A stretch of DNA of 64,000 nucleotides from Candidatus Nanoarchaeia archaeon (lineage in GTDB: Archaea > Nanobdellota > Nanobdellia > SCGC-AAA011-G17 > JAFCDX01): positions 266,609 to 330,608 of the forward strand of contig JBAZJB010000001.1 of the NCBI GenBank assembly GCA_041651575.1, in the 5' to 3' direction. Both the position numbers and the translations under genes were made by a program. The notes under the pieces are model-generated. The model made no database searches. It saw only the letters and a program-made list of their open reading frames with translations, and was not told the origin of the DNA. Positions 2,577 to 63,101 of this stretch are shown one piece after another (position 1 is the stretch's first letter; every line of letters begins with the position of its first letter).

Positions 2577-5156
2577 ATGATAACTTTTAAGGAAAAACCA
2601 GATAAAGAAGAGGAGCTTTTTGATAGTTTACACCCCATTGTTAAAAAATGGTTTGAATCTAAATTCAAGAATTTTGCTTTATCTCAGTTGTATTCTATAA
2701 AAGAAATTAATGCTCAAAAAAACATACTAGTTTCTGCTCCTACAGGTTCTGGTAAGACTTTAACAGCTTTTTTATCAATTTTAAATGAATTAATCATACT
2801 ATCCGAAAATAATTTACTTGAAAATAAAGTATATGCGGTTTATATTTCTCCATTAAAAGCACTAAATTCTGATGTACAAATAAATTTAATAGAACCATTA
2901 AAAGAAATGGAAAAAATTGCAGGAAAAGAATTTGGAATTAAGGTTTTAGTAAGAACAGGAGATACAACTGCTTCAGAGAAAGCTAAAATGTTAAAAAAAT
3001 CTCCACATATATTAATAACTACACCAGAAACATTATCCATAGTAATATCTACAATAAAATTCAAAGAAAACCTAAAAAATGTAAGATATTTGGTTATAGA
3101 TGAATTACATTCCATTGCAGAGTCTAAAAGAGGAACAAACTTATCAATAAGTATAGAAAGATTACAACATTATTGTGAAAATGAAATTACAAGAATTGGA
3201 TTAAGTGCTACTTGTGAACCAATAGAAGAAATTGCTAAGTTTTTAGTGGGTTCCTCAAGAGATTGTATAATTTCTAGAATAGATCTTTCTAAAAAAATGG
3301 ATATTAAAGTTTTATCTCCTGTACCTGACTTAATTAATATAACTTATGAGAAAAAACATGATGAATTATATAATTTGCTAGATAAATTAATCCAAGAACA
3401 TAAAACAACTTTGATCTTTACTAATACAAGAAGTGCAACTGAAAAAGTAGTACATCATTTAAAAGAAAGATTTCCAAAAAATTACACTGAAAATATTGGA
3501 GCACATCATGGTTCTCTATCAAAAGAACACAGACAAAATATAGAACAACAATTAAGAGAAGGAAAATTAAAATGTATTGTTTGCTCTACTTCTTTAGAAT
3601 TAGGTATAGATATTGGTTATATTGATTTAGTTATTTTATTGGGAAGTCCTAAGTCAATTGCAAGAGCAATACAAAGAATTGGAAGAAGCGGACACTCATT
3701 ACATGAAACTATCAAAGGAAGATTTGTTGTAATGGATAGAGATGATTTAGTTGAATGTTCTGTAATGTTAAAGAATGTTATTGAAAGAAAAGTTGATAAA
3801 ATACATATTCCCAAAGATTGTTTAGATGTTTTAGCACAGCAAATTTATGGTATTGCTATAACAGAAATGATTCATATTGATTCTTTATTTAAAATGATTA
3901 AAAAAGCATATCCTTATTCTGATTTAGAAAGAAAAGATTTTCAAGAAGTCATTGATTATCTAGCTGGAAAGTATTCTAGTTTAGAAGATAGACATATTTA
4001 TGCAAAAATTTGGTATGATGAAGAATCAAAAATGATTGGTAAAAGAGGAAAATTAGCAAGGGTTATTTATATGTCAAATATTGGAACTATACCAGAACAA
4101 TCTTTTATAACAATTAAAATAGGAGAACAAGCTATTGGTCATGTAGATGAAGGTTTTCTTGAAAAATTAAAAAGGAATGATATCTTTTTATTAGGAGGAA
4201 ACACTTACAAATTTTTATTCGCTAGAGGAATGGTAGCACAAGTATTAGCTTCTGAAAGAAAACAACCAACAGTTCCTTCTTGGTTTTCAGAAATGTTACC
4301 TATGAATTTTGATTTAGCACTAGAAATAAATAGATTTAGAGGTTTAATGAAAGAAAAATTTGATTCTAAAAAATCTGAAGAAGATATTTTAAAATTCATT
4401 AATGAATATTTATATGTAGATTCTAACGCAGGAAAAGCAATTTATGAATATTTCAAAGAACAATATTATTATACTAATAAAAATATTCCAAATCCAAAAG
4501 AATTAATCATAGAATTTTTAAAAGAAGACGAAAAAAATTATGTTATTTTCCATTCTTTATATGGAAGAAGAGTAAATGATGTTTTATCAAGAGCAATTGC
4601 TTTTGCAATATCAAGAATACAACATAAAGATGTAGAAATAGGTATAAGTGATAATGGTTTCTATATTGCTTCTCCTGAAGATAGAAAAATTCAAGTTCTT
4701 AGAGCATTTAAATATATAAAATCAAGTGAATTAAGAAAAGTTCTTGAATTAGCCATAGAAAACTCTGAAGTTCTTAAAAGAAGGTTCAGACATTGTGCAG
4801 CAAGATCATTAATGATATTAAGAAATTATAAGGGTAGAGAAAAAAGAGTTGGAAGGCAACAAGTAAGTTCTATGATATTAATGAATGCAGTTAAAATGGT
4901 TTCTAAAGATTTTTGTATTTTAAGAGAAGCTAAAAGAGAAGTACTTGAAGATTTAATGGATATTGACAATGCAACTAAAATATTAAAAGACATTGAAGAT
5001 GGGAAGATAAAAATTAAAGAAATTTCAACTAGTATTCCTAGTCCTTTTGCTTTTAATTTGGTTCTAGCAGGGCATTTAGATTTCTTAAAATTAGAAGAAA
5101 AAGCAGAATTCATAAAAAGAATGCATTCTTATATATTAGCTAAGATAAATAAATAA
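2577..5156 (+). CDS. lhr: Lhr-family large ATP-dependent helicase (DEAD/DEAH box)
   Basis: 859 aa; Walker A SAPTGSGKT, DExH (VIDELH), helicase C motifs; C-terminal DEAD/H-associated-like region. Confidence 0.75.
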   Translation: MITFKEKPDKEEELFDSLHPIVKKWFESKFKNFALSQLYSIKEINAQKNILVSAPTGSGKTLTAFLSILNELIILSENNLLENKVYAVYISPLKALNSDVQINLIEPLKEMEKIAGKEFGIKVLVRTGDTTASEKAKMLKKSPHILITTPETLSIVISTIKFKENLKNVRYLVIDELHSIAESKRGTNLSISIERLQHYCENEITRIGLSATCEPIEEIAKFLVGSSRDCIISRIDLSKKMDIKVLSPVPDLINITYEKKHDELYNLLDKLIQEHKTTLIFTNTRSATEKVVHHLKERFPKNYTENIGAHHGSLSKEHRQNIEQQLREGKLKCIVCSTSLELGIDIGYIDLVILLGSPKSIARAIQRIGRSGHSLHETIKGRFVVMDRDDLVECSVMLKNVIERKVDKIHIPKDCLDVLAQQIYGIAITEMIHIDSLFKMIKKAYPYSDLERKDFQEVIDYLAGKYSSLEDRHIYAKIWYDEESKMIGKRGKLARVIYMSNIGTIPEQSFITIKIGEQAIGHVDEGFLEKLKRNDIFLLGGNTYKFLFARGMVAQVLASERKQPTVPSWFSEMLPMNFDLALEINRFRGLMKEKFDSKKSEEDILKFINEYLYVDSNAGKAIYEYFKEQYYYTNKNIPNPKELIIEFLKEDEKNYVIFHSLYGRRVNDVLSRAIAFAISRIQHKDVEIGISDNGFYIASPEDRKIQVLRAFKYIKSSELRKVLELAIENSEVLKRRFRHCAARSLMILRNYKGREKRVGRQQVSSMILMNAVKMVSKDFCILREAKREVLEDLMDIDNATKILKDIEDGKIKIKEISTSIPSPFAFNLVLAGHLDFLKLEEKAEFIKRMHSYILAKINK

Positions 5157-5209
5157 TTATACCTTGCCCCCATGTTAGAGTGGTTACAAATAGAAAGATT
5201 TATAAGTAG

Positions 5210-5620
5210 TTGGTAAATATTAATAATATGAATATTTTATATTTAACACGAAATCTTGAAGTAATGAAAGAACTACAGAAAGAAATGGATAGATTTCTAG
5301 ATGTTTATGATATTTCTGGAAAAGGAGATATTTTAGTATGTAAAGTAAAATTAGGAGAAATTAATACAAAATATAAACACATTATAGGTAATATTACCAC
5401 AAGTATAAATATTGATCCTTATAACTATCCCGCTTCGTATATTGATGAAATATTAGTAAAAAGTGGAGATGATTCAGATGCTCAGTTTATAAAAGTTGAC
5501 CCCCTAGGAATTGTATTAAAATTAGATAACCTCCTTTATGGAATTAAAATAAATAAAATGCCAAAAGAAGATGCAACCATTGGAAATGAAAATTTTCCTC
5601 CAGGTCCAATACTTGAATAG
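5210..5620 (+). CDS. hypothetical protein
   Basis: 136 aa ORF, no recognisable motif. Confidence 0.3.
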   Translation: MVNINNMNILYLTRNLEVMKELQKEMDRFLDVYDISGKGDILVCKVKLGEINTKYKHIIGNITTSINIDPYNYPASYIDEILVKSGDDSDAQFIKVDPLGIVLKLDNLLYGIKINKMPKEDATIGNENFPPGPILE

Positions 5621-5788
5621 ATATTTTACTAATCTTTTTCTCGTGGGTGTGAATATCTTCGAATTTCTAAAAAAATTTAAAAATAACTATTCTATTTTTA
5701 CTTTAATCACTTTTCTAAAGAAGTTATGGGCACAATAAAAAGAAATAATTACTTAATATTTGCATATATGTTGCCTAGGAAGCAAAAA

Positions 5789-6316
5789 TTATATTTTTAT
5801 TATTTTTTCTTCTATTGCTTCTTCTAAAGATATTCTTGCTAAATAAGGTAAAAATTCTGGACCGTATTTATCATAAATCTTTTCACGTTCTCCATCAGAA
5901 TACTTTTTATCTTCATCTGTTCTTAGATTTAAAATAAAATTTCCATATTCTGCAACTAATTCTGTTAGTTTATCATATCCTTCTGGTAATTTACCTGTTT
6001 TTAAATAAATATTAACTCCCTCAATCATACCAGGATTTACAAAATTATGTATAAAATGTCCAGATTCATGATATATCACCGCTTTAGAAAAAACACCCTT
6101 AATAAATTTTGGTTCCTTTAATGGAAAATAAATAAAATTATCTATCGAACTATAAGCAGGTACGTTTCTACTATGATCAGGATATTCGTCTGGTTTTAAA
6201 AAACGCCTAATAGTTGGTTTTCTGAATCTTTTTAATTCATCGCAACTAACTTTAAAATAAGGCATAAGATTATTTATTGCTTTTTCTATTTCCGCTTTTA
6301 ATAATTTTAGCTTCAT
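5789..6316 (-). CDS. putative HExxH zinc-metallopeptidase-like protein
   Basis: 175 aa; HESGH motif; shares one base with the upstream L,D-transpeptidase gene (translational coupling). Confidence 0.35.
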   Translation of the reverse strand: MKLKLLKAEIEKAINNLMPYFKVSCDELKRFRKPTIRRFLKPDEYPDHSRNVPAYSSIDNFIYFPLKEPKFIKGVFSKAVIYHESGHFIHNFVNPGMIEGVNIYLKTGKLPEGYDKLTELVAEYGNFILNLRTDEDKKYSDGEREKIYDKYGPEFLPYLARISLEEAIEEKIIKI

Positions 6317-7203
6317 TATCCTATTTTAACTTCAATTACTTTTTCTAAAGGATAAATTGTTCCTCTACTAGTAGTTTTTGGTTCTTTATGTAAAATATAA
6401 TGTAAAAATGCAGGATATAATTCTTCAATAACGTCTGGAATTCCTCTTACACAACCATGAGAAGGTCCAAGAGGTTTATTTGTAGAATGTAATCTTATTC
6501 CATCATCTCCAGCTAATCTAAATTCATAACCTATTAAATTAGGATTTGAATATAATTCTGCCATCCAAATTCCAAAAGGATTATTTTTTCCTGGTCCTAT
6601 AGGTCCTTTAGCACTTGCCCATTCTGGAGGATACCACCAAGGATTTTTTACTAATCTTTTAATATAAAATATTCCTGAAGGAGTACTAAAATCTCTTTCT
6701 TTAGTTTTTCCCATTCCTAAACCAACAGGTTTTTCAAGTAATAATATATTTTTAGAATTAAAACGTTGATAAACTTTTAATAAGGATTTCTTTTTATCTA
6801 TTTCTATAGAAAGGCCCATTTCGTCTACTAAAAAATTATTAGGTATTACCAAGGAATAATTTAAATTCCAACTCTGAAGGGGTTCATAACAACTAGATTT
6901 AATCTGAGAATATAATCCATTAAAATGAATTTTGAACTCAGAAACAATGTCATCCATATACTTTCCAAACAAATAAGAATTATTATTTTCTGTTATTTTT
7001 TCTCTTAAAAAATCTCTTAAATTAATATCTTTAATAATATGTTTATCTTTGTTATTAAATTCTCTGTTATAATCCTTTTTTATTAGTTCTTCTAATTCTA
7101 ATGCAGAAAAAGATATATCAGCTATACCTTCTTCTTTTTGGAATAAACAAATAGGTAAAGCTAAACTACAACTTTTGATGAAATCTCTTCTGTCAATCTT
7201 CAT
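6316..7203 (-). CDS. L,D-transpeptidase (YkuD-domain) with twin-arginine signal peptide
   Basis: 295 aa; N-terminal DRRDFIK Tat motif followed by a hydrophobic stretch; C-terminal TPSGIFYI...NPWWYPPEW...HST...SHGCVRG matches the YkuD catalytic region. Confidence 0.65.
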   Translation of the reverse strand: MKIDRRDFIKSCSLALPICLFQKEEGIADISFSALELEELIKKDYNREFNNKDKHIIKDINLRDFLREKITENNNSYLFGKYMDDIVSEFKIHFNGLYSQIKSSCYEPLQSWNLNYSLVIPNNFLVDEMGLSIEIDKKKSLLKVYQRFNSKNILLLEKPVGLGMGKTKERDFSTPSGIFYIKRLVKNPWWYPPEWASAKGPIGPGKNNPFGIWMAELYSNPNLIGYEFRLAGDDGIRLHSTNKPLGPSHGCVRGIPDVIEELYPAFLHYILHKEPKTTSRGTIYPLEKVIEVKIG

Positions 7204-39160: not shown

Positions 39161-40628
39161 ATTCCTGTTGATCCTGCAGGAGAATGCTGCTATTGGGATT
39201 CGATTAAGCCATGCAAGTCAGGGGTAGCAATACACCGGCATAAGGCTCAGTAACACGTCGATAATCTAACCTTAAGTCTAGGATAACCTTGGGAAACTGA
39301 GACTAAAACTGGATAAAAGAAAGATACTGGAATGTTTTTTCTTTGAAAGGTAACGCTTAAGGATGAGTTGGCGGCTGATTAGGCTGTTGGTGAAGTAAAG
39401 GCTCACCAAACCAAAGATCAGTAGGGGCCCTGAGAGGGGTAGCCCCGAGAAGGGTACTGAGATACTGACCCTAGCCCTAAGGGGTGCAGCAGGCGCGAAA
39501 ACTTTACAATGCGCGAAAGCGTGATAAGGGAATCCCAAGTGCTTATCCATTGGATAGGCTTTTGCCAAGTGTAAAAAGCTTGGAGAATAAGTGGTGGGCA
39601 AGACTGGTGCCAGCCGCCGCGGTAACACCAGCGTCCACGAGTGGCATTCACTATTATTGGGTCTAAAGCATTCGTAGTTGGTTTGTCAAGTCTTTTGTGA
39701 AATTGTTGGACTTAATTCAACAGCGTGCAAGAGATACTAACAAGCTCGAGACCGGGAGGGGACAAGAGTATTTCAGGGGGAGCGGTAAAATGTTATAATC
39801 CTTGAAAGACTTCCAGTGGCGAAGGCGCTTGTCCAGAACGGTTCTGACAATGAGGAATGAAAGCTAGGGGCGCAAAGCGGATTAGATACCCGCGTAGTCC
39901 TAGCCGTAAACGCTGCGAGCTATGTGTTGCATATTCCTAGAGAATGTGCAGTGCCTAAGTGAAGACGTTAAGCTCGCTACCTGGGAATTACGGTCGCAAG
40001 GCTGAAACTTAAAGGAATAGGCGGGGGCTCACACAAGGAGTGGAGTGTGCGGTTCAATTGGATTCCACCCCGGAAATCTTACCAAGATCGACGGCAGAAT
40101 GAAGGTCAGATTAAAGGTTTTACCTAACAAGCCGAGAGGTATTGCATGGCCGTCGTCAGCTCGTGCCGTAAGGTGTCCAGTTAAGTCTGGCAACGAGCAA
40201 GACCCACATGTATATTTGCTAACATTTCAGTAATGAAGAATGAGCACAATATATGGACTGCCTGTGAAAACAGGAGGAAGGCGTGGGCAACGATAGGTCC
40301 GTATGATCTGAATATCTTGGGCTACACGCGCGCAACAATGGTAGGGACAATGGGTCACAACTCCGAGAGGAGAAGTTAATCCTCAAAACCCTATCTTAGT
40401 CTAGATCGAGCATTGAAACTCATGCTCGTGACAACGGAATTCCTAGTAATCGTTCATCACTATTGAACGGTGAATATGTCCCTGAGCCTTGCACTCACCG
40501 CCCGTCAAACCATTCGAGTAGGGTTCAAATGAGGTCTGTTTTTTAGAATAGAACAAATTTGGATTCAATAAGAAGGGTTAAGTCGTCACAAGGTATCTGT
40601 AGGGGAACCTGCAGATGGATCACCTCCT
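39161..40628 (+). rRNA. rrs: 16S rRNA (archaeal)
   Basis: 5' attcctgttgatcctgcagg; internal gtgccagccgccgcggtaa; 3' ggatcacctcct; flanked by a complementary processing stem (39091..39117 with 40665..40688). Confidence 0.9.
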
Positions 40629-40688
40629 ATATTTTTTTAAAATATAATATAATAAATAATAGAACTCACTAAATGCTTTTGCTCATAC

Positions 40689-40824
40689 TTGATTAACTGG
40701 GCCTGTAGTTCAGCGGTAGAATACCTCCCTTGCACATAAATTTTTGATAAAATTTTATCGAAGAAAGGAGGGGGTCTCGGGTTCGAAATAGTTTTTTCAG
40801 AAATTGAATAACTTTGAAAATCCC
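40689..40824 (+). tRNA. tRNA-Ala(TGC) with two introns: canonical anticodon-loop intron (40725..40755) and a 33-nt T-loop intron (40778..40810, between positions 59 and 60)
   Basis: Exons fold into acceptor GGGCCTG/CGGGTCC, D arm GTTC/GAAT, anticodon arm CCTCC-CTTGCA-GGAGG, T arm TCGGG-TTCGAAT-CCCGA, discriminator A. Confidence 0.65.
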
Positions 40825-40920
40825 GACGGGTCCACATTTAAGTATTTATTTATGAGGATCCATAACATAATTGTTTGGGTTTGATAGTTAATATATCATA
40901 TTAACTGTGCATAGGATTTG

Positions 40921-43806
40921 GAATACACTATTAGGTGGAAGACTAGGTTCAAAGTTCGAAGAAGGACGTGGCAAGCTACGATATGCTCTAGGGAGACGCA
41001 TGCAGTCTTAGAACTAGAGATTTCCTAATTAGATTCTATCTCTTCGGAGAAATCAGAAATGATAGGTTACGCGGAGAATTGAAGCGTCTTAGTATCCGCA
41101 GGAAAAGAAATCAATTCGAGATGCTGTTAGTATCAGCGAGAGAAAACAGCAGAGAGCAAACTGAATCCTACTGGAAACAGCAAGGAAATGTGGTGTTGAA
41201 GACTCATTTTTAGTCTTAACTGAGAATACAAAGTTTTCTGGAAAGAAACACTGTAAAGGGTGATAGTCCCGTAGTATTTAATCAGAAGATGTATGAGTAT
41301 CTTGAGTAAGGTCTATCGGAATTTAGGCCTGAATTTGGGAGACATTTACTTCCAACTCTAAATATTGCTTTGAAACCGATAGCGAATAGTACCGTGAGGG
41401 AACGTTGAAAAGAACTCGTAATAGAGAGTGAAAAGAATCTGAAACCTAATAGTTATAGCATGATGCTGCTCTTAGGAGTTGCATCGTACGTTTCGAATAA
41501 CGGGCCAGGGAGTTTACTTAAGTAGCAAGGTTAATTTGAAAAAAGAAACCGAAGCGAAAGCGAGATCCCGCAGTTCACGAGGGGAAAAGTATGAAAATGC
41601 TTTAAGTTACTTAGGTATGACCCGAAACCGATCGATCTAATCCAGGGCAAGGCGAAGTTTCTGTAAAAGGAAATGGAGGCCTGAAGAGGTTCTGTGAGAA
41701 AGCGTTCTTCTGACTCTGGATTAGGAGTGAAATGCCAATCGAGACCGGTAATAGCTGGTTCCTGTCGAATTTGATCTGAGTCAAGTCTCAACAGAGGAAG
41801 CTTAAATGGTAAAGATCCTGATTTGAGGTTTTGGCTAGGAAACTAGTCGGCCTCTTGTCAAACTAAGAACGTTTAAGTTCTGTAGAAGTTGGGAAACGGG
41901 GTTGTGGGGTAAGCTCGCAATCCAACAGGGGAACAACCCAAGCCAACAGTTAAGGTCCCAAAATATCAATTAAGTGTTAACGGGTGAAAGGTGTATACTA
42001 TCTCAGACAGAAGGGAGGTAGGCTTAGAAGCAGCCATCCTTTAAAGAAAGCGTAATAGCTCACCTTTCAAGATAGTGTGCCCTGAAAATGGACGGGGCTA
42101 AATTGATTACCGATACTGTTGAAATCTGAAAAGATATTGGTAGACAGGCGTTTTTCTTGGATAGAAGTATTTTCGTAAGAAGATATGGACCAAGTAAAAT
42201 TGCGAATCCTGGCGGTAGTACGGAGCAACACAATGTTAGAATCATTGGTATCGTAAGGGTAAGGGTTTCTCAGCAATGCAGTTCAGCTGAGAGTTAGTTG
42301 ATCCTAATCACTACATAATTTGAAGAGTGAAAAAGGGAAAAAGGTTAAAATTCCTTTACTATCTAAGTACATTCGGCAACGAAATTTTAATTTTTGACAC
42401 TTTGGGATAGACCAACATTTTTAATCTGAAATGTCAATCAAAATAAATTGCAGGAGTATCGTAATGATGAGAATGCAATTAAATTTGAGATGAGTGGACA
42501 TTTGTTCATTTGGTTAATTTCTAGAGTCCATGAAAAGGAAATTAAAAGGATCTTAGATAATCATACCCAGAACCAGCACAGGTACCCTAGGTGAGAAACC
42601 TAAGATATGAGGGAAGAATCGAGTTAAGGGAACTCGGCAAATTAGTCCCATGCCTTCGGTATAAGGGATTCCTGCGATTGTATTTGTACGAATGCAATTA
42701 CAGGATGCAATAACAAGGGCGGTCCGACTGTTTAACAAAAACATAGCTTTCCGCTACTCTGTAAAGATTAGTATGGAAGGTGAAGTCTGCCCAGTGCGAG
42801 TATCCGAACATTCCTTCCAAGGAAACTAAGGACTCGTAAACGGCGGGAATAACTATAATTCTCTTAAGGTAGCGTAATACCTTGTCGTTTCAATGACGAC
42901 TTGCATGAATGGCGTAACGAGATTGTCACTGTCCCTAACTCGAATCCCCCGAACACTATATTCAGGTGCAAAGTCCTGAGACCTCCAGTGGGAAGCAAAG
43001 ACCCCGTGAAGCTTCACTATAGTCTGTTATTGTAGTGTGAAATTTTATGTGCAGTGTAGGTGGTAGCTGCTAAGACTCAGACGCTAGTTTGAGTATAGGC
43101 GAAATATGAGACACCACTCTTAAAATTTTATATTGCTAACTTCTGAAAGGAAGGACAGTAGCTGATGGATAGTTTGGCTGGGGCGGCATGCTCTTGAAAC
43201 GGTATCAAGAGCACCCAAAGGTCAGCTCATTTGGTTTAGAAATCCAAAGTAGAGTGTAAATGCAAAAGCTGGCTTAACTGTACTCTGAACAATAAAGGGT
43301 GCAGGAAGGAAACTTTGGTTTAGTGAACCCCTATGCTTCGTTTATGGGAGCTAGGGCTAATAGAAAAGCTACTCCGGGGATAACTGAGTTGTCGCGCCTG
43401 AGAGCTCATATCGACGGCGCGGTTTGCTACGACGATGTCGGCTCGCCTTATCCTGGCTGTGCAGAAGCAGCCAAGGGTGGGGGTGTTCACCCATTAAAAA
43501 GGCTCGTGAGCTGGGTTCAATACGTTGCGAAACAGTATGTTCGATATCTAGTGGAGGTGTTCGTGTCTGAGTGGAAAGATCATTTAGTACGAGAGGAACG
43601 GTGGTCTGGGGCCTCTGGTGTATCTGTTATCTGATAAGGTAGGCAGAGCAGCTACGCCCCTTGGGATAAGAACTGAAAGCATCTAAGTTCGAAGCCCTCC
43701 GCGAAAAGAGACACACATAAAATGCTCATAGAAGATGAGCTTGATAGGATCGAGGTGTAAGCATCAAGGTAACGAGATGTTCAGCCTGCGGTTACTAACA
43801 TTTTTT
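40921..43806 (+). rRNA. rrl: 23S rRNA (ends approximate)
   Basis: gaagaaggacgtggcaagctacgata near the 5' end; conserved 23S blocks throughout (e.g. gacccgaaacc-like, GTPase-centre and sarcin-ricin regions); flanking processing stem 40906..40919 with 43812..43825. Confidence 0.85.
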
Positions 43807-43916
43807 TCCAAAAATCCTATGCACATTTATTTTTTATTTCTATAAATTTTTCCAAATCCTAAATTTTAATTTCTTAAAACATTAAATTTATATATAGCTA
43901 TTGCAGTATACATTAT

Positions 43917-44247
43917 GTAGGTAAGATAGCTAACTATCGCTTGCAAAAGTGAGGAAAGTCCGTCCACTAAACTTTTGATAAAAATCAAAAGATAATATCG
44001 GTTGCTTGTCTTGACACAAGTTCCAGAAATGGAAGGCAACTGCTCAGAAACGGAATGTCCTTTAGCTGTTATAAAAATGTGGCTGTGAAATTTCTCGTGA
44101 GAGAGATGAGTTAACCAGCTGAATAGGTTAAAGGGAACATTGAAACGACAGACCCTATCAGTGCAAGTCTGTAAAGACGCTTAGTAGAATGTTAGCACAA
44201 TCTTTCCAAATGGAGATTGACAAAAGACGGCTTATTTCTTACCTACA
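43917..44247 (+). ncRNA. rnpB: RNase P RNA (archaeal type A-like)
   Basis: P1 stem gtaggtaaga/tcttacctac; CR-I gaggaaagtccg; CR-V acaaaagacggcttat; about 331 nt. Confidence 0.7.
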
Positions 44248-52673: not shown

Positions 52674-53390
52674 TTATAATCTAATAATTTCTATCTCACC
52701 AAAATGCTCTTTTTGATCTATGTCTATTTTTTTACTATTAACTAAATGCAATAAAGGTAAAAATGTCATAATTTTATCCTCTTTTTTATCGCTTGGAATT
52801 AATTCATTAAAAGTTAGTTTTTCTTTTTCTTTGAAAAAACCAGTAATTTTATCATAAAGATTTTTTATTAATATACTAATATCGACTTTTTTCTCAGGCA
52901 GTTTAACTTGTTTTAAATATCCTTCTTCTCTTACTCTTTTCATTGTTCTTCTTTGGTCTACTTCAAGAGCTTTTTGCAGTGCTCCCATTAAATCATTTAA
53001 ATTAACTTTTTTCTTTCTTGCCAAAGGGGTTTTTATTGTTAATTGTGGATTTCCTGCTAATAATCTTACATTTTCAGGCATTTCTCCAAATTCTTCCATA
53101 TTTTCAATTTCACCTTGAGAAAATAACTGCTGGTCAAATGCTGCAAGCTTTTCAGTTAGTAATCTTTCTGATTTTATTTTTAGTAATATTGCTGCAGCTA
53201 AAACAACTTTTCCTGATATGAAAAAATTAGCTTCTTGCAATGTTCTAATTGCATCTAAATATCTCTGAGCTAAAATAGAAATATCAATATTCCAAGGATC
53301 TAGCTTTCCTGTTCTTATCAATTCATGTAAAAGGCTCTGCCAGGTAATCTCATCCTTTTGCATAAGCATAGAATATAACTGGTCTTGCAT
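52674..53390 (-). CDS. scpA: segregation and condensation protein A (kleisin)
   Basis: 238 aa; LDPWNIDISILAQRYLDAI...KVVLAAAILLKIKSERLL typical ScpA N-terminus. Confidence 0.6.
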   Translation of the reverse strand: MQDQLYSMLMQKDEITWQSLLHELIRTGKLDPWNIDISILAQRYLDAIRTLQEANFFISGKVVLAAAILLKIKSERLLTEKLAAFDQQLFSQGEIENMEEFGEMPENVRLLAGNPQLTIKTPLARKKKVNLNDLMGALQKALEVDQRRTMKRVREEGYLKQVKLPEKKVDISILIKNLYDKITGFFKEKEKLTFNELIPSDKKEDKIMTFLPLLHLVNSKKIDIDQKEHFGEIEIIRL

Positions 53391-53578
53391 GAATTAACTA
53401 ATTAGAACTTTTTTATAAACCTATTGTTAAGGCTTTAAACACCAGAATATGACTAGCAGTATATGTACCTTTTTAGTAACCACTGTAGAATGAACACATA
53501 CCGAAAGATTTATAAATTAGTTAATATCATTAAATCTAATCACCTCTTTTTCCCGAGCAAGTCTCTTCGGAGGTTTGC

Positions 53579-53893
53579 TTGGGTTTATATTCAAAAAAAA
53601 TGGTACAACCAATAAACTTCAACAAAGATGATTTTGAAAAGAGAATAGCTAGTTATCTTACATTTGGTTCTGAACTTAAATTTATTAGTAAAATAGATGG
53701 AAAAGAGATAGAAGATCTAGGATTTCTTATAAGTGCTAGTGAAAATTATGTTTTAATTGCACAATCAAAAATAGGAGAAAATGAATTCTCAGCAATTACT
53801 TCAATTTATTTAAAAAATGTAACACAATATTATATTTATAATATTCCTGAAAAAAGACAAGATAAAGATCATAATTTATTTATGGATGTTTAA
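53579..53893 (+). CDS. hypothetical protein (real start probably ATG at 53600)
   Basis: 104 aa. Confidence 0.3.
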   Translation: MGLYSKKMVQPINFNKDDFEKRIASYLTFGSELKFISKIDGKEIEDLGFLISASENYVLIAQSKIGENEFSAITSIYLKNVTQYYIYNIPEKRQDKDHNLFMDV

Positions 53894-54073
53894 TTATTTC
53901 TTAATTATTTCAACATAACCACAAGAACCACAGTGTAATCTATCTTTATGAGTTCCTAAGAATGAATTGCATTTAGGACAAGTTTTACCACGAGAAACTA
54001 TTTTATTGTTTTCAATTTTATACTTTTTCCATTTCTGACTTGGTTTTTTATTTTTTACTTTTTTCTTTGCCAT
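53894..54073 (-). CDS. rps27ae: 30S ribosomal protein S27ae (eS31), unannotated short ORF
   Basis: 59 aa from reverse-complement reading: MAKKKVKNKK...GKTCPKCNSFLGTHKDRLHCGSCGYVEIIKK; C4 zinc ribbon; follows S24e as in archaea. Confidence 0.7.
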   Translation of the reverse strand: MAKKKVKNKKPSQKWKKYKIENNKIVSRGKTCPKCNSFLGTHKDRLHCGSCGYVEIIKK

Positions 54074-54079
54074 TTTTAT

Positions 54080-54361
54080 TTATGCAGCAGGAGCTCCTTC
54101 AACTTTTTTCTCTTTTTTCTTTTCAAATAAATCATAAGTTTTTTGATCTTTGTAAATAAAAGCAACTATTCTTGATTTTGCTAATCCATAATTTGTATAA
54201 ATATGTTTAACAGAAACTAATTCTGCAGGTGCTTTTTCTAATTCAGATATTTTATTAATTAATTCTTGATTCGAAGGAGTTTTAGCATTAATATGTTCTA
54301 TCTCAAATTCAAATTTTGTTCTTTTTAATAAAGGCATTTCTTCCTTGTATATAGCTTTCAT
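54080..54361 (-). CDS. rps24e: 30S ribosomal protein S24e
   Basis: 93 aa; KTPSNQELINKISEL...IYTNYGLAKSRIVAFIY pattern. Confidence 0.75.
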   Translation of the reverse strand: MKAIYKEEMPLLKRTKFEFEIEHINAKTPSNQELINKISELEKAPAELVSVKHIYTNYGLAKSRIVAFIYKDQKTYDLFEKKKEKKVEGAPAA

Positions 54362-54362
54362 T

Positions 54363-54545
54363 TTAAGAAGTTTTTATTGCATATTCTCCTTTAACTTTTA
54401 TCCCTACTTTTTGAGCTATTTCAGATTTTTCTACGTTGTGAATATAAATTCTTCCTTTCCATGAAGTTGTAAAACTAGTTCCTTTGCAAATAGGACATTC
54501 ATTTCCTTTTACTAAAATTTTACATTTCTTACATGCCTTTTTCAT
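54363..54545 (-). CDS. spt4: transcription elongation factor Spt4 / RNAP subunit E''
   Basis: 60 aa; CKKC...CPIC zinc ribbon followed by SWKG.IYI..VEKSEIAQK. Confidence 0.7.
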   Translation of the reverse strand: MKKACKKCKILVKGNECPICKGTSFTTSWKGRIYIHNVEKSEIAQKVGIKVKGEYAIKTS

Positions 54546-55120
54546 TTTTCTTTCTTAGCTTTTTCTGGTTTTTCTTTTGCTACTTTTTTTAAATCTTCTT
54601 CAATCCAAGCAATTGATCCTAAGTTTGGCTGTCTCATTGTCAATCCAATTTTTGGACTTGTTAAATCTTTATATGATACTGCAATTATTCTTGCTCTGCA
54701 TTTATCACCTGTTTTTAACATGTGTTTTGATTCTTTACCTTGTAATTCTCCTTGTTTTGTAAATGAAACATAATCGTCCATTGTTTGTGAAATATGAATC
54801 ATACCATCAATTGGACCGATGTTCATGAATGCACCAAAACCTGCAATTTCTGAAATCTTACCAATAACAATTTCTTGCATTTCTGGTTTTAATACTATGA
54901 TTTTAAATCTTGTTTCGTAATAAGCTGCACCATCTCCAGGTATAATAACTCCTTCTCCAACATCTAAAACTTCTGAAACATCAACTACAATACCTAAATC
55001 TTGTGAAATAAATTGCTCAAAAGTGCTTTTTAAATTCTTTAAAATAGATTCTTTAATATTTTCCTCTAATTCTCTTGGAGGTATTCTGATATGACTTTTA
55101 ACTTCTATTTCGTAAAACAT
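54542..55120 (-). CDS. rpoE: DNA-directed RNA polymerase subunit E' (Rpb7-like, S1 domain)
   Basis: 192 aa; MFYEIEVKSHIRIPPRELEE N-terminus plus S1 fold; operon with spt4-S24e-S27ae. Confidence 0.8.
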   Translation of the reverse strand: MFYEIEVKSHIRIPPRELEENIKESILKNLKSTFEQFISQDLGIVVDVSEVLDVGEGVIIPGDGAAYYETRFKIIVLKPEMQEIVIGKISEIAGFGAFMNIGPIDGMIHISQTMDDYVSFTKQGELQGKESKHMLKTGDKCRARIIAVSYKDLTSPKIGLTMRQPNLGSIAWIEEDLKKVAKEKPEKAKKEK

Positions 55121-55168
55121 CTTAATTTCTAAGTATAAAAAGGGTTTTTAAATCTTTTTGTTTATTGA

Positions 55169-55519
55169 TTATACCAGAATTAAGAAATGTTTTTGTCTTA
55201 TTGTAATAGTTTGAATATTTTTTTCTTTTAATCTTCTTTTTAATGCTTGATCTTCTGTAGCAACAACATAATTTTCATCAACTGTATCTAAAATTAAATT
55301 ATCAACGATATTATCTTTTTTTGTTTTTATTATTTCAAATTTCTCGACGAGCTTTAGTGCTAATTTAGAATTTTTCTTGTCTTTTAATTCATCCAGAGTT
55401 TGATCTATTACAGCTAGTTTATAATTAAAATTACAAATTCTTTCAAATTCTGAAATAAAATCTATCTTGAATTTAATGCAGTCAAGCAAAAAACTTGTGT
55501 CTAATATTATGGTTTTCAT
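55169..55519 (-). CDS. PIN-domain protein
   Basis: 116 aa; N-terminal ILDTSFLL...D acidic residues; conserved position upstream of rpoE in archaea. Confidence 0.5.
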   Translation of the reverse strand: MKTIILDTSFLLDCIKFKIDFISEFERICNFNYKLAVIDQTLDELKDKKNSKLALKLVEKFEIIKTKKDNIVDNLILDTVDENYVVATEDQALKRRLKEKNIQTITIRQKHFLILV

Positions 55520-55621: not shown

Positions 55622-57586
<1,965 letters not shown>

Positions 57587-57587
57587 A

Positions 57588-58052
57588 ATGAAACTGATAA
57601 TTAAAAAATCAAAAATAGAAGGAAAAGGAATTTTTGCTCATAAATCTATAAAAAAATATGAAAAAGTATTCAAATTTGCTGATAGGGTAATAAAAATAAA
57701 TCATAAACATGGATGCCATTGTAAAATATGTAAAAGATGTATACAAATTGATAAATTTAATTGGTTGTATCCAAATCAAGAATCTTATGGATGGTATCTA
57801 AATCATAATTGCAATCCCTCTTGTGGAATAAAAGGAAAATATATAGTTGCTTTAAAAAATATAAGACCTAAAGAAGAAATTAGTATAGATTATTCTACAA
57901 CAAATAATGACGAAGTATGGGAAATGAAATGTTATTGCAATAACAGTAAATGTAGAAATAAAATAAAAAGTATTCAATTTTTACCAAAAAATTTATACAA
58001 AAAGTATAAAGGATTTATTCCAAAATATGTAGAAAAAAGTTATAAGATATAA
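57588..58052 (+). CDS. SET-domain protein (putative lysine methyltransferase) inserted between gyrB and gyrA
   Basis: 154 aa; [15 protein letters not shown] (NHSCxPN), EISIDY, post-[11 protein letters not shown]. Confidence 0.65.
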
Positions 58053-58053
58053 A

Positions 58054-60480
58054 ATGACAGAAGAAATTAAAAATAGATTAATTGAAACAGAAATGAAGGA
58101 AGCTTATCTAGATTATTCTATGTCGGTTATTGTTTCAAGAGCTCTGCCAGATATAAGAGATGGATTAAAACCAGTTCACAGAAGAATTTTATATTCAATG
58201 CATGATATGGGATTAGCTTTTAGCAAGCCTTTTGTAAAATCTGCAAGAGTAGTTGGTGAATGTTTCAAATATCATCCACATGGAGACGCTGCTATTTATG
58301 ATTCTTTAGTTAGAATGGCTCAAACTTTTTCATTAAGATATCCTTTAGTATTTGGACATGGAAATTTTGGTTCTATAGATTATCCTGATGCAGCTCAAAT
58401 GAGGTATACCGAATGTAAATTAAATAAAATTTCAGAAGAATTACTTGAAGATTTAGATAAAAACACAGTTGATTTCATAGATAATTTTGATGGATCATTA
58501 AAAGAACCTTTAGTTTTACCTGCTAAATTACCAAATTTATTAATTAATGGTTCATCTGGAATTGCAGTTGGTATGGCAACAAATATTCCTCCGCATAATT
58601 TAAAAGAAGTTTGTGAAGCAACAATTGCTTTAATTGATAAACCAGAATTAGAAATTTCAGAATTAAATAATTACATTAAAGGTCCTGATTTTCCAACAAA
58701 AGGTTTGATTTATGGAGCAAATGGAATAAAAGAAGCTTACAAAACAGGACGTGGAAAATTAGTTATTAGGGCAAGAACAGATATTGAAGGTAAAAAAATA
58801 ATTATTTCTGAAATACCTTATCAAGTTAACAAAGCAACATTGTTAGAAGACATTGCAAACTTAGTAAATGAAAAAAAGGTTCTTGGTATTACTGAAATAA
58901 GAGATGAATCTGATAAAGAAGGAATAAGAATTGTTATTGAAACCAGTTCAAGTTCAAATCCAGAATTTATTTTGAATCAATTATACAAACATACTTCCTT
59001 ACAATCAAGTTTTGGTATAATTTTACTAGCTTTAGTTAATAATGAACCTAAAATATTAAATTTAAAACAAATAATTGAAGAATATATTAAACATAGAAAG
59101 AATGTAGTAACAAGAAGAACACAATTTGAGTTAGATAAAGCAGAAAAACGGGCACATATATTACAAGGGCTGCAAATTGCTATTGAAAACATAGATAATG
59201 TTATTCCTATAATTAAAAAATCAAAATCGGTAGAAGAGGCAAAACAAAATTTAATTGTAACTTATACTTTAAGCTCTGAACAAGCAATTGCTATTTTAGA
59301 TATGAAATTACAAAGGTTAACTTCTTTAGAAAAAGAAAAAATCATTGAAGAATTTAATTATTTGGTAAAGTTAATAGTAGAATTAAAAGAAATCTTAGCT
59401 TCTGAAATTAGAATTTTAAAAATAATAAAAGATGAATTAATTTCTATTAAAGATAAATACGGCGATGAAAGAAAAACAATCATATTAACAGATACAAAAG
59501 AAATTGAAACAGAAGATTTAATCAAAGAACAAGATTTAGTTATTACAATGACAAATTCTGGATATATTAAATCAACTACTTTAGATTTATACAAACAACA
59601 AAGACGTGGAGGTAAAGGAATTATTGCTTCTACTACAAAAGAAGAAGACTTTGTTACAGAATTAGTAATTGCAAACTCTCATGATAATTTATTATTATTT
59701 ACAAATACAGGAAAAATACACTGGTTAAAAGCTTACCAAGTTCCAGAATCAGGAAGATATGCAAAAGGATCTGCTATAATTAATTTATTAAGCTTAGATA
59801 AAGATGAAAGAATTACTTCTTTAGTTTCTGTAGAGAAATTTGAAGAAAATAAATATTTATTTATGGCAACTAAACAAGGAACTGTTAAAAAAACTTCTTT
59901 AGCAGAATATTCTAATCCTAGAAAAGGAGGAATAATTGCAATTAATATAAAAGAAAACGATGAATTAGTCTCTGTAAAAATAACAGATGGAACTAAAAAA
60001 TTAATTTTAGAATCTGATCAAGGAAAAACAGTTAAATTTGATGAAACCGATGTAAATCCAATGGGTAGAAATGCTCAAGGTGTTAGAGGTATTTCATTAA
60101 GAGGTGCTAGCTTAATGGATATGGAAATTTGTGATGGAAATTATTTATTAACAATAACTGAAAATGGTTATGGTAAGAGAACTTCTATAGAAGATTATAG
60201 ATTAGTTTCTAGAGGTGCTTCTGGAGTTTTAGACATAAAAGTAAATGATAGAAATGGTAAAGTTGTTGGTGCTAAAGTTGTAAATGAAAACGATGAAATT
60301 ATGGTTATAACTAAAAATGGTTCTTTAATTAGAATGAATGTCTCTGATATTTCTGAAATTGGTAGAAATACTCAAGGAGTAAGAATAATGAAATTGGATG
60401 AAGGAGATAAGGTAATTAATATTGCTAAAATTATTAAAGAAGAAGAGATTAAAAAAGATTTTACTCTTGGTGGATTTTAG
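58054..60480 (+). CDS. gyrA: DNA gyrase subunit A
   Basis: 808 aa; [13 protein letters not shown], catalytic-Tyr region, C-terminal beta-pinwheel repeats. Confidence 0.9.
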
Positions 60481-63101
60481 TAAAAATATTTTTTCTTTTT
60501 AAAAAAGAAAATAATTCCTATTAAAAATAATACGAAACATATTACACCTATTATTATATATTTATAAGGTATTAAACGAAGATTAACTTCTTTTAAAACA
60601 ATTTCTTCAGGAGTAATTTCTGCAACAGCTTCTTTAGAATTTATGGTAAGAGTAATTGGCATTCTGTAGCCATAATTAAGTCCATTAATTATTATTATTC
60701 CTTTTACTTCTCCTGTTTTTTCTGTAGGCAATATTGTAAAGGATATTTTTTTTGTTTCTCCAGGTTTTAAAATAATTGTTGAAGCTTCTAATTTAATTAT
60801 GCCTTTTAATGAATCTGATAATTCTATTCTTATAATATCTGATTCTTTTTGTGAATTTGTTAAAGTAAAACTTGATACTTTTTCTTCTGATTGTGTTAAA
60901 TCAAAACTTAATTCGTTTTCTGAAGTTGCAAAACTTGCTGATGATTCTTCTAAAGATCTTGTATTTTCCTGTGAAACTATTGATCCTCCACTTCCACCAG
61001 AACTTCCACTAGAAGGTTGTTGTAGTTCTCCTATCTGGATGGATATATTTCTATGAGTGGCATTATAATTTGTATCAAAAGGAATTATATTTATTATATA
61101 ATTTCCTGTAGCAGGAGGACTCCAAGTGTAAGATGTAGAAGCTGTTGTTGTTAATCTTGTTCTTACATTGTTTAAGATATATTCTACAATGTAATTTATA
61201 GTTTGATATGAAGTTTGTGTTGTCCATTGAATTGTTTTAACTCCAATTTCCCCGGCAGATGCAGGAGGACTTGTAATATTTACTAATCCACATTCTCCAG
61301 AAGCTATAGCAGAAGAAGGTATTTTATAATCATAGAAATTACCTATATTATTGTAACATCCTATTCCTTTTGCTACTCCGCCACCATAAAAATTATTATA
61401 CCATATATTACTGCTAGAAGAATTTATAGCATAACCTTCATTACTTATATTATAAAAAATATTTCCAGTTATATTATTATTTAATCCTGTTCCAAGTATA
61501 GTAAAAGTAGTTTGATAAAATGCAGAATTATTTACATAATAACTGGTATTTACATAATTTAATGTTAGAGAAGAATACCCAGAAATTAATGTTGCTCCTT
61601 CTAAAGAAATGTTTGTATAATTAATACCGTAACTTAATCCATCTCCTTCTGCTAAAAATAACCAAGAAGAGTTATAATCGCAAGTTATAGCTGGAACTGC
61701 TACATGTAAAGCATCACAAGTTAAAGGATAATCATTTGCTGTATAAGCGGTTACTTTTGCTCCAGCACCACAACCGACAGCATTTCCCCCATCTGTTAAT
61801 AACCATAAAGCATAATTAACTGTTCCATCTGTATCTGTCATAGGCATATTATCATGAGTTATATGTTCATGATCTCCCGCACCATTTGCTAATATAACAC
61901 AACTATTATAATTAGTTCCTCCATATTTGAAAGAAGAATTAGAAGCATACCAAGATTGATTTAAAGTCCAAGCTTCATTTATGGTGTATAGTGTTTGTCC
62001 AGCACCATTAAAAGTATTATTAATTATATTATTATTATTTCCAATTAAAGTTATTGCAAGAGTATTATTATCAGTTATATTAACATAATTATTCATAAAT
62101 AAATTATTATCAGTTAGAGAAAATAAAGTAGAAGTTGTAAGATTACATATAAATATACTATTAGTTACATTATTATTATTCACACCAGCCCCACCAATAC
62201 AAACATTTAATCCATTAACAGCTGAGACATTATTAATATTACAACTTTCTCCAAAACTTAATTTTTTTGTTGATGAATTTATAATATTACATATATTAGA
62301 TACCCAAATACTTTCATTAGTTGTAGCATTATAAATAAAATTATTTTCTCCACCAAAACCAATATAAGTTCCATTAAAATTAGCAAGATAAGTTTGTCCC
62401 ATATATTGTGCATCTTCAAAGTGTATGGATCCTGAAGAATTAATACTTGTAAAATTAATCATACAAGCACCTATCCCAGTTTCTTTGGATAATGCCCCAG
62501 AAAAATTTATTGTTTTTAAATTATTTCCAGAATAAAAATAGGCATCTGCCTTTATATTTTCCAAAGTAACATTATGACAACCCCATTCTGTAGCATCATT
62601 TCCTCCCCCACCACAAGCATGTACAGAAACAATATTACCACTCATAAATCCATAACCTATGTTTGCAGTAAGATTAAAAGCAGTTAAATCTACATTTTTA
62701 ACTGTAAGATTAAAAGCATTATTTTTCTTATTACAATATATAGCATTATCTATGTTCCATTGTGTAGGTGTTTGATTTGCAGGAACTATTATTGTTCCAT
62801 TGAAATCAATAGTTACATTAGAAGTTTCTATACTTATTATTCCATATGTTGCTGCTCCTTCTGCAACTCCTTTTAGAATTCCAGAAATATTATACCAAGA
62901 TTTATTTATTGTATAAATACCCTGTTCCATAATGCTACATGTATCCCCTATACTATTATTTATATGAACTAAACAAGATTCTAAATCTGTATAATCTCCT
63001 CCTCCAGAAAGTTGAACACTATGATCTGCTGCATAAATAAAAGGCAAACATAATAGCATAAAAACTAATACAAATATCCTCTCTTTTTTAATAAAATACA
63101 T
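60477..63101 (-). CDS. giant secreted surface protein (right-handed beta-helix-like, Asn/Gly/Thr-rich) with Ser/Gly linker and C-terminal TM anchor
   Basis: 874 aa; signal peptide; repetitive N..N.T strands; [11 protein letters not shown] linker; C-terminal hydrophobic helix plus KKKK. Confidence 0.5.

Follow-up and report, generated by a model that had tools for sequence, protein, structure and literature searches.

A SET and post-SET protein encoded between gyrB and gyrA of a nanoarchaeal genome: a likely amine methyltransferase in a probably incidental operon position

The closest described counterparts of the protein considered here are the SET domains of the MLL/SET1 (KMT2) family, represented by MLL1 (PDB 2W5Y, 7W6A), a small archaeal SET protein and the bacterial enzyme BurB. 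The protein itself is encoded by an open reading frame (ORF) situated between the DNA gyrase genes gyrB and gyrA in a stretch of 64,000 nucleotides (nt) from a Candidatus Nanoarchaeia archaeon (contig JBAZJB010000001.1, positions 266,609 to 330,608), hereafter the window. In MLL1, the cysteines of the NHSC and post-SET motifs are the zinc ligands. To our knowledge, Go1-SET of Methanosarcina mazei (AAM32541) is the one archaeal SET protein that has been studied biochemically. Its in vitro substrate is a lysine of the chromatin protein MC1-alpha (PMC3980110), a precedent cited correctly in the earlier note on this DNA. BurB of Burkholderia thailandensis (PDB 9L4T, 9L4V) is a SET-domain methionine S-methyltransferase with a small-molecule substrate (PMC12542666). 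As for gyrase, the archaeal survey of Villain et al. (2022, PMC9348778) describes gyrB followed by gyrA on one strand as the usual operon and reports that most Micrarchaeota, Woesearchaeota and Pacearchaeota have the enzyme. The window differs from this layout in carrying a third, unrelated gene between the two subunit genes.

It is likely that this ORF encodes a SET methyltransferase that is active, depends on zinc and modifies a primary amine, most probably that of a protein lysine, with S-adenosylmethionine (SAM) as methyl donor, and that its position within the gyrase operon is incidental. The gene is present exactly as the earlier note described it, a 154-amino-acid (aa) frame between gyrB and gyrA, and the Pfam search that the note proposed returns the SET model PF00856 over its full length (profile positions 1–105 of 105) with 44 bits and E=3.3e-11 against a cut-off of 22.4. 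A phmmer search of PDB sequences matches the SET domains of MLL4, MLL1 and MLL2 together with BurB, and a profile of 20 homologues matches the MLL1 SET domain with E=1.2e-21. NCBIfam holds no model for this SET family. The AlphaFold2 model, built on a 20-sequence alignment, reaches a mean predicted local distance difference test score (pLDDT) of 91.1 and a predicted template modelling score of 0.86. It displays the SET beta-fold with pseudoknot-like threading of the C-terminal part, and Foldseek aligns it with MLL1 and MLL4 at E about 1e-9. All sequence and fold tests thus identify the ORF product as a genuine SET and post-SET protein.

The SET and post-SET cysteine motifs named in the earlier note are all present. 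Specifically, the translation contains G12-K-G14-I-F-A, N72-H-N-C75-N-P-S-C-G and E97-I-S-I-D-Y102, followed by the post-SET motif C115-x-C117-x4-C122. Across an alignment of 88 family members, N72, H73, C75, E97, D101, Y102 and S103 are invariant, while C115, C117, C122 and R123 are nearly so; C75 and the post-SET cysteines are kept in 82–88 of the 88 members, and G12 and G14 occur in nearly all members having a residue at those columns. Column by column, the GxG, NHxC and ExxxDY motifs and the cysteines of CxCx4C match those of MLL/SET1 enzymes, and in the HMMER alignments C75, C115, C117 and C122 fall on the MLL1 NHSC and post-SET cysteines. By this cysteine pattern the protein belongs to the post-SET subgroup that includes MLL, ASH1L, NSD and SET2, and its zinc cluster is a putative one. 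Residue I100 is aligned with what we take to be Y3942 of MLL1, the Phe/Tyr-switch residue, by numbering counted back from the MLL1 C-terminus. The window protein therefore differs from MLL1 in having Ile in place of Tyr, and in the family this column is occupied by Phe (59/88) or Ile (28/88) and never by Tyr (0/88).

Several further features separate the protein from the MLL enzymes. It is a stand-alone chain of 154 aa with no known partners of the WDR5/RbBP5/ASH2L type, its host is a DPANN archaeon with no histone seen in the window, and it carries an extra CxCxxCxxC insert together with a 30-residue C-terminal helical extension. The insert (residues 43–51) is confined to the 13–16 closest relatives and is absent from the rest of the family; the local pLDDT is lower here, at 75 for residues 41–50. 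Judged by its sequence, this distinctive cysteine insert marks the subfamily of the window protein, and it is probably a second zinc site. The C-terminal extension (residues 126–154) forms two short helices with conserved I126, L132 and P133, and is common to the whole prokaryotic family and BurB. BurB is also of similar size and has the post-SET CxCx4C followed by the I-x5-LP extension typical of that family. However, BurB has L-H where the family has an invariant N-H, acts on a free amino acid and obtains a lower profile score than MLL. Its substrate-binding residues are not comparable, because the amino-acid substrate is bound through main-chain atoms. By its description, Go1-SET is alike as a small archaeal SET-domain protein; in contrast to that system, the window contains no MC1 homologue, and Go1-SET has not been reported in a gyrase operon.

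In the proposed mechanism, the GxG loop (G12-G14), N72-H73 and the post-SET zinc cluster of C75, C115, C117 and C122 would together bind SAM. The substrate, envisaged as the epsilon-amine of a lysine in a cellular protein, would pass into a narrow channel with the invariant Y102 in its wall and accept the methyl group there, and I100, as a non-Tyr residue at the switch position, predicts by analogy that more than one methyl transfer is allowed. The clade-specific insert would bind the second zinc and shape the substrate groove. In this lineage alone, the SET gene would have been inserted exactly at the gyrB|gyrA junction, and it would now be a passenger co-transcribed with gyrase by accident of insertion.

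The flanking genes pass equivalog-level NCBIfam cut-offs, which assigns them to gyrase and not to topoisomerase IV (coordinates in Table 1). The gyrB product scores 925.5 against a cut-off of 882.4 for TIGR01059 and contains the Pfam domains HATPase_c, DNA_gyraseB, Toprim and DNA_gyraseB_C. The gyrA product scores 1133 against 877 for TIGR01063 and contains DNA_topoisoIV and six DNA_gyraseA_C repeats, corresponding to six C-terminal blades, with a QRRGGKG GyrA box in its translation. A single nucleotide intervenes at either junction (positions 57587 and 58053); the tight abutment claimed in the earlier note stands, whereas its "2 nt" is a coordinate difference and the true spacer is 1 nt. The three genes occupy three different frames, which precludes a fusion or read-through. 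On its upstream side, 165 nt of intergenic DNA separate the unit from a divergent PIN-domain gene; on its downstream side a convergent 874-aa ORF forms the boundary. No terminator-like site occurs on the + strand, the sole such site being on the opposite strand. Given the 1-nt spacers, the lack of a + strand terminator-like site and the divergent and convergent boundary genes, the SET gene is almost certainly co-transcribed with gyrase, in agreement with the earlier note, and is probably translationally coupled to it. A scan for sigma-70-type promoters, whose consensus is inapplicable to archaea, returned 39 sites against 37 expected by chance, and archaeal promoters are not callable in DNA of 25% GC.

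This arrangement invites the interpretation that the SET gene is kept in the gyrBA operon for a functional reason, its product methylating gyrase or a nucleoid or chromatin protein and so linking methylation to topology. The earlier note took the coupling to gyrase as a hint in this direction and proposed that the distribution of the gene order be checked. The survey comprised about 99 places with a SET homologue, drawn from the contigs encoding 12 homologues and from the 80 best species-representative loci for the family profile; the first 96 loci yielded 88 distinct SET sequences. Gyrase was sought by tblastn with the window GyrB and GyrA, and loci L177 and L178 were judged from their gene tables instead. 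No gyrase was found within 6 kb of the SET homologue at any of these places, and a conserved gyrB-SET-gyrA synteny was rejected on this basis. The near clade, which has 50–67% identity and the CxCxxCxxC insert and is grouped in a neighbour-joining tree, comprises 15 distinct genomes with 15 different contexts, and several of its SET genes are packed equally tightly into unrelated operons. The gyrB-SET-gyrA order is unique to this genome among the surveyed loci and is neither conserved nor universal. It was likewise not found in the literature searched, including the archaeal gyrase survey, and for the terms searched that paper yielded no mention of inserts at the gyrB-gyrA junction (PMC9348778). 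The literature search on SET proteins with DPANN or Nanoarchaeota returned nothing relevant.

The reverse test started from gyrase. Among 80 metagenomic loci fetched with the GyrB C-terminus, gyrA follows gyrB in 24, and none of the 80 has a SET gene between the two. The closest gyrB relative, L093 (GyrB 66% and GyrA 60% identical), has the same TAA-A-ATG junction type without an insert. In L125, the S24e-Spt4-Rpo7-PIN block stands upstream of gyrB as in the window, which identifies it as a true syntenic relative; its gyrB-gyrA slot holds a HAD-family hydrolase gene. The L125 gyrB is 1041 aa long, owing to an intein in the Toprim domain. Of the 24 gyrB-to-gyrA loci, 10 have a different gene in the slot, among them L125 and eight more. 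Since the junction is empty in L093, occupied by a HAD hydrolase in L125 and filled with other genes elsewhere, it is a variable slot. A conserved gyrB-X-gyrA three-gene operon was also considered and discarded, as relatives are empty or contain a HAD hydrolase or pyrophosphatases.

As a separate observation, an inorganic pyrophosphatase gene lies between gyrB and gyrA in 7 of the 24 gyrB-to-gyrA loci. These enzymes are of three unrelated types, namely soluble family I (PF00719, n=5), DHH+DHHA2 (n=1) and membrane H+-PPase (PF03030, n=1). It looks as though pyrophosphatase function has been captured or displaced repeatedly at this junction.

The spacing of the genes is ordinary. When the window is mapped crudely, its genes form 49 same-strand neighbour pairs, of which 24 lie no more than 5 nt apart (median over all pairs 7 nt), so the 1-nt spacers are the normal state of this compact genome. 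Because the synteny is unique, the slot variable and tight spacing the default of the genome, the gyrase position most likely says little about the SET substrate. A function coupled to gyrase could still draw on the 1-nt spacers on both sides, which would make co-expression obligatory, on the methylation of MC1-alpha by Go1-SET in vitro (PMC3980110), on the RPA-like, Rad50, RadA or PolB genes near some near-clade homologues, and on the basic character of the SET protein (pI 9.7). However, the synteny is confined to one genome, measured against about 99 places and 15 near-clade genomes, the closest gyrase operons are empty or carry HAD hydrolase or pyrophosphatase genes in the slot, and tight spacing is the background state. 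Moreover, the literature searched yielded nothing that connects gyrase with lysine methylation by SET proteins. The window holds no homologue of histone, Alba, MC1, HU, Cren7 or Sul7d, a result uninformative for the whole genome; tblastn of the window with Alba, HMfB, MC1, HU, Cren7 and Sso7d queries gave nothing below E=0.08. Co-expression and DNA-metabolism neighbours are not above chance for compact, information-gene-rich genomes. Functional coupling is accordingly very unlikely, and the hint that the earlier note saw in the gyrase position does not hold up. Its boldest form, in which the SET protein would be a third, subunit-like partner of gyrase that methylates a lysine of gyrase or of a nucleoid protein and thereby tunes supercoiling, is highly improbable; if true, it would be the first instance of a prokaryotic type II topoisomerase under the control of lysine methylation.

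A further possibility is that the gene is a decaying or non-catalytic passenger, either a selfish or neutral recent insert or a catalytically dead SET-like binding protein. Its unique location is compatible with this, as is a GC content of 0.219, slightly below the 0.27–0.28 of its neighbours, and inactive SET proteins exist in eukaryotes (PMC12886896). Yet the frame is intact, all invariant family residues are retained, and the precise 1-nt junctions are kept, which leaves gyrA expression intact. The GC content is within about 1.7 standard deviations of the window mean (0.268 +/- 0.029), GC at third codon positions is 0.116 against a window mean of 0.134 +/- 0.043, and codon usage falls inside the spread of the other small genes of the window. 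Neither bracketing repeats around the gene nor mobile-element genes near it were found. The SET protein has no phage match, and 2.9 million viral contigs gave 5 distant matches, plasmids not being part of that search. Cargo of a mobile element was therefore rejected, as there are no repeats, no compositional outlier and no phage match beyond the distant viral-contig matches, and there is no sign of recent foreign origin. A decaying or inactive passenger is thus extremely improbable. As regards the insertion itself, the right junction AAGATATAAAATGA (58036-58058) resembles the left junction AGATACTTAAAATGA (57570-57592), and both resemble the uninterrupted gyrB-gyrA junction AGATATATAAAATGG of L093 (5738-5760). 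This likeness may be the trace of insertion by recombination at microhomology, or it may be chance in AT-rich DNA.

The window protein belongs to a large family. A search of 1.84 billion representatives with a 160-position profile gave 278 clusters (50% identity) at E<=1e-30, most of them spanning the full profile, and 5,331 clusters at E<=1e-10. A word-indexed search gave 1,687 clusters (90% identity) at E<=1e-10, for which the fullest source annotation is 'SET domain-containing protein(-lysine N-methyltransferase)'. DPANN archaea (Micr-, Nano-, Woese-, Pace- and Aenigmatarchaeota) account for 24 of the 80 best species-representative loci and Candidate Phyla Radiation (CPR) bacteria, or Patescibacteria, for about 15; the remainder belong to Leptospirales and other Spirochaetota, Desulfobacterota, Gemmatimonadota and Proteobacteria. 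DPANN archaea and CPR bacteria commonly encode small stand-alone SET proteins of this family, and the statement of the earlier note that archaeal SET proteins are rare is contradicted by the 24 DPANN loci among the best 80 and the 278 clusters at the stricter threshold.

The family also displays varied architectures and one conserved neighbourhood. Tandem SET-SET proteins of 320–380 aa are frequent (P0021, P0022, P0023 and many others), and other members carry a long extension at the N-terminus, a Kdo-transferase domain (P0130) or as many as 8 SET-like stretches (P0024, P0025). In a CPR-dominated clade, the SET gene is consistently placed between a membrane histidine-kinase-like gene (~555–600 aa, HisKA+HATPase_c) and a gene for a multi-pass membrane protein of ~240 aa without a Pfam match. 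This conserved neighbourhood is unlike any other in the family.

Neighbours of another kind bear on the substrate. Genes for deoxyhypusine synthase (DHS) or DHS-like 'homospermidine biosynthesis' proteins are found beside SET in three distinct clades of the family: four loci are from DPANN archaea, four from Desulfobacterales and two from Leptospirales. The DPANN loci share the order DHH/DHHA1 protein, DHS, SET and membrane protein, and all six bacterial loci also have an agmatinase gene beside SET. Within the near clade of the window protein, the SET gene of P0005 (58% identical; L174) follows a homospermidine-synthase-like gene after 17 nt. In addition, P0038 (735 aa) fuses a Sacchrp_dh_C domain of the homospermidine-synthase type to two SET domains of this family, and the homospermidine-synthase-like gene of L174 is homologous to its N-terminal part. 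A 4-aminobutyl group is what DHS and bacterial homospermidine synthase transfer, so that each product terminates in a four-carbon chain with a primary amine, in chemical terms a lysine side chain. These associations raise the possibility that the SET enzyme acts on the terminal amine of a 4-aminobutyl group, as in homospermidine or the deoxyhypusine of aIF5A, or on another small molecule, as BurB does; the gyrase neighbours of the window gene would then have no bearing on its function. Against this, the window contains no DHS, homospermidine-synthase-like or agmatinase gene, and the link appears in only 1 of the 15 near-clade genomes. The family profile scores 80 bits with MLL-type lysine methyltransferases and a more distant 52 bits with BurB, and N72-H73 is invariant in the family against L-H in BurB. 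Furthermore, the neighbourhoods are correlative, and the literature searched contained neither such an activity nor a link between SET and homospermidine or deoxyhypusine synthase. A non-protein or hypusine-type substrate is on balance unlikely, and a lysine of a cellular protein is the preferred substrate.

The remaining features of the window and of the compared loci are collected in Table 1. With a hydrophobic segment at the N-terminus, a transmembrane segment at the C-terminus and numerous N-x-S/T sites, the product of the 874-aa ORF convergent on gyrA is probably a DPANN surface protein. The 16S, 23S and RNase P RNA genes are arranged head to tail at 39161-44243 (+), and the window is archaeal because all three match archaeal models; no 5S rRNA scores above the Rfam threshold in the whole window.

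Table 1. Features of the window and of the compared loci; positions without a locus name refer to the window
Feature	Location	Strand	Remarks
gyrB	55685..57586	+	DNA gyrase subunit B, 633 aa, first of three genes
gyrB-SET junction	57584..57590	+	TAA-A-ATG, read from sequence; 1-nt spacer
SET + post-SET methyltransferase gene	57588..58052	+	ATG to TAA, 154 aa, intact frame
Codons C43-H-C45-K-I-C48-K-R-C51	57714..57740	+	SET-I insert region; putative second zinc site
SET-gyrA junction	58050..58056	+	TAA-A-ATG, read from sequence; 1-nt spacer
gyrA	58054..60480	+	DNA gyrase subunit A, 808 aa, last of three genes
874-aa ORF convergent on gyrA	60477-63101	-	4-nt stop-stop overlap with gyrA; no Pfam match
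ScpA (kleisin), ribosomal protein S24e, Spt4, Rpo7 (RpoE') and PIN-domain genes	52674-55519	-	Upstream of gyrase unit
16S rRNA	39161-40628	+	Matches archaeal model
23S rRNA	40912-43817	+	Matches archaeal model
RNase P RNA	43920-44243	+	Matches archaeal model; starts ~100 nt past 23S
Near-clade SET context	L010		Unknown gene and convergent RadA
Near-clade SET context	L012		Divergent aminoacyl-tRNA synthetase gene
Near-clade SET context	L173, L016		RPA-like gene (two related contigs)
Near-clade SET context	L174		Homospermidine-synthase-like gene
Near-clade SET context	L007		M50 peptidase upstream, short-chain dehydrogenase (SDR) downstream; 2- and 1-nt spacers
Near-clade SET context	P0008		GAPDH
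Near-clade SET context	L001		ProRS or ThrRS
Near-clade SET context	L176		Membrane protein, 4-nt overlap
Near-clade SET context	L013		Glycosyltransferase and Rad50
Near-clade SET context	L014		MetRS-TatD-SET-LeuRS
Near-clade SET context	L017		S1-domain protein and ribosomal protein S27e
Near-clade SET context	L177		2-oxoacid:ferredoxin oxidoreductase operon, 6-nt spacer
Homospermidine-synthase-like gene	L174 3-584		Saccharopine-dehydrogenase C-terminal domain (Sacchrp_dh_C)
DPANN DHS-SET loci	L061, L065, L073, L083 (about 4950-6490)		DHS above NCBIfam cut-off, 40-60 nt upstream of SET
Desulfobacterales DHS/DHS-like SET loci (n=4)	L044, L067, L074, L075		
Leptospirales DHS/DHS-like SET loci (n=2)	L033, L034		
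Kinase-flanked SET loci, CPR-dominated clade	L005, L006, L008, L009, L021-L025, L035, L037, L039, L057, L076		
Gyrase region of L125	L125 2535-6315		HAD-family hydrolase in gyrB-gyrA slot, overlapping both neighbours
Slot pyrophosphatases	L110 5723-8072; L114 5744-6609; L117 2073-3120; L118 4853-5987; L119 5075-5645; L120 5705-6224; L121 5798-6562		Between gyrB and gyrA

Some observations weigh against an incidentally placed protein lysine methyltransferase. Co-transcription at a constant ratio to an essential DNA enzyme may be put to functional use in this lineage, where the arrangement is known from a single genome, and gyrase, RPA-like (twice), Rad50, RadA and PolB genes lie near 5–6 of the about 15 near-clade members, a weak hint not shown to exceed chance. 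The protein substrate is assumed by analogy, and BurB applies the same fold to a small molecule. With these points taken into account, methylation of a primary amine, most probably on a protein lysine, by an enzyme with an incidental position in the gyrase operon is still the likely account.

The locus also carries a caution for reading compact DPANN genomes. Spacing of 0–5 nt and operon membership are the default state in such genomes, and guilt by association in a single genome is therefore weak evidence. The gyrB|gyrA junction emerges as a place where small housekeeping genes have landed repeatedly, and the SET gene joins a large uncharacterised family of SET and post-SET enzymes in ultra-small archaea and bacteria. 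For the function of that family, the neighbours and fusions involved in aminobutyl transfer offer a more useful lead than the gyrase position.
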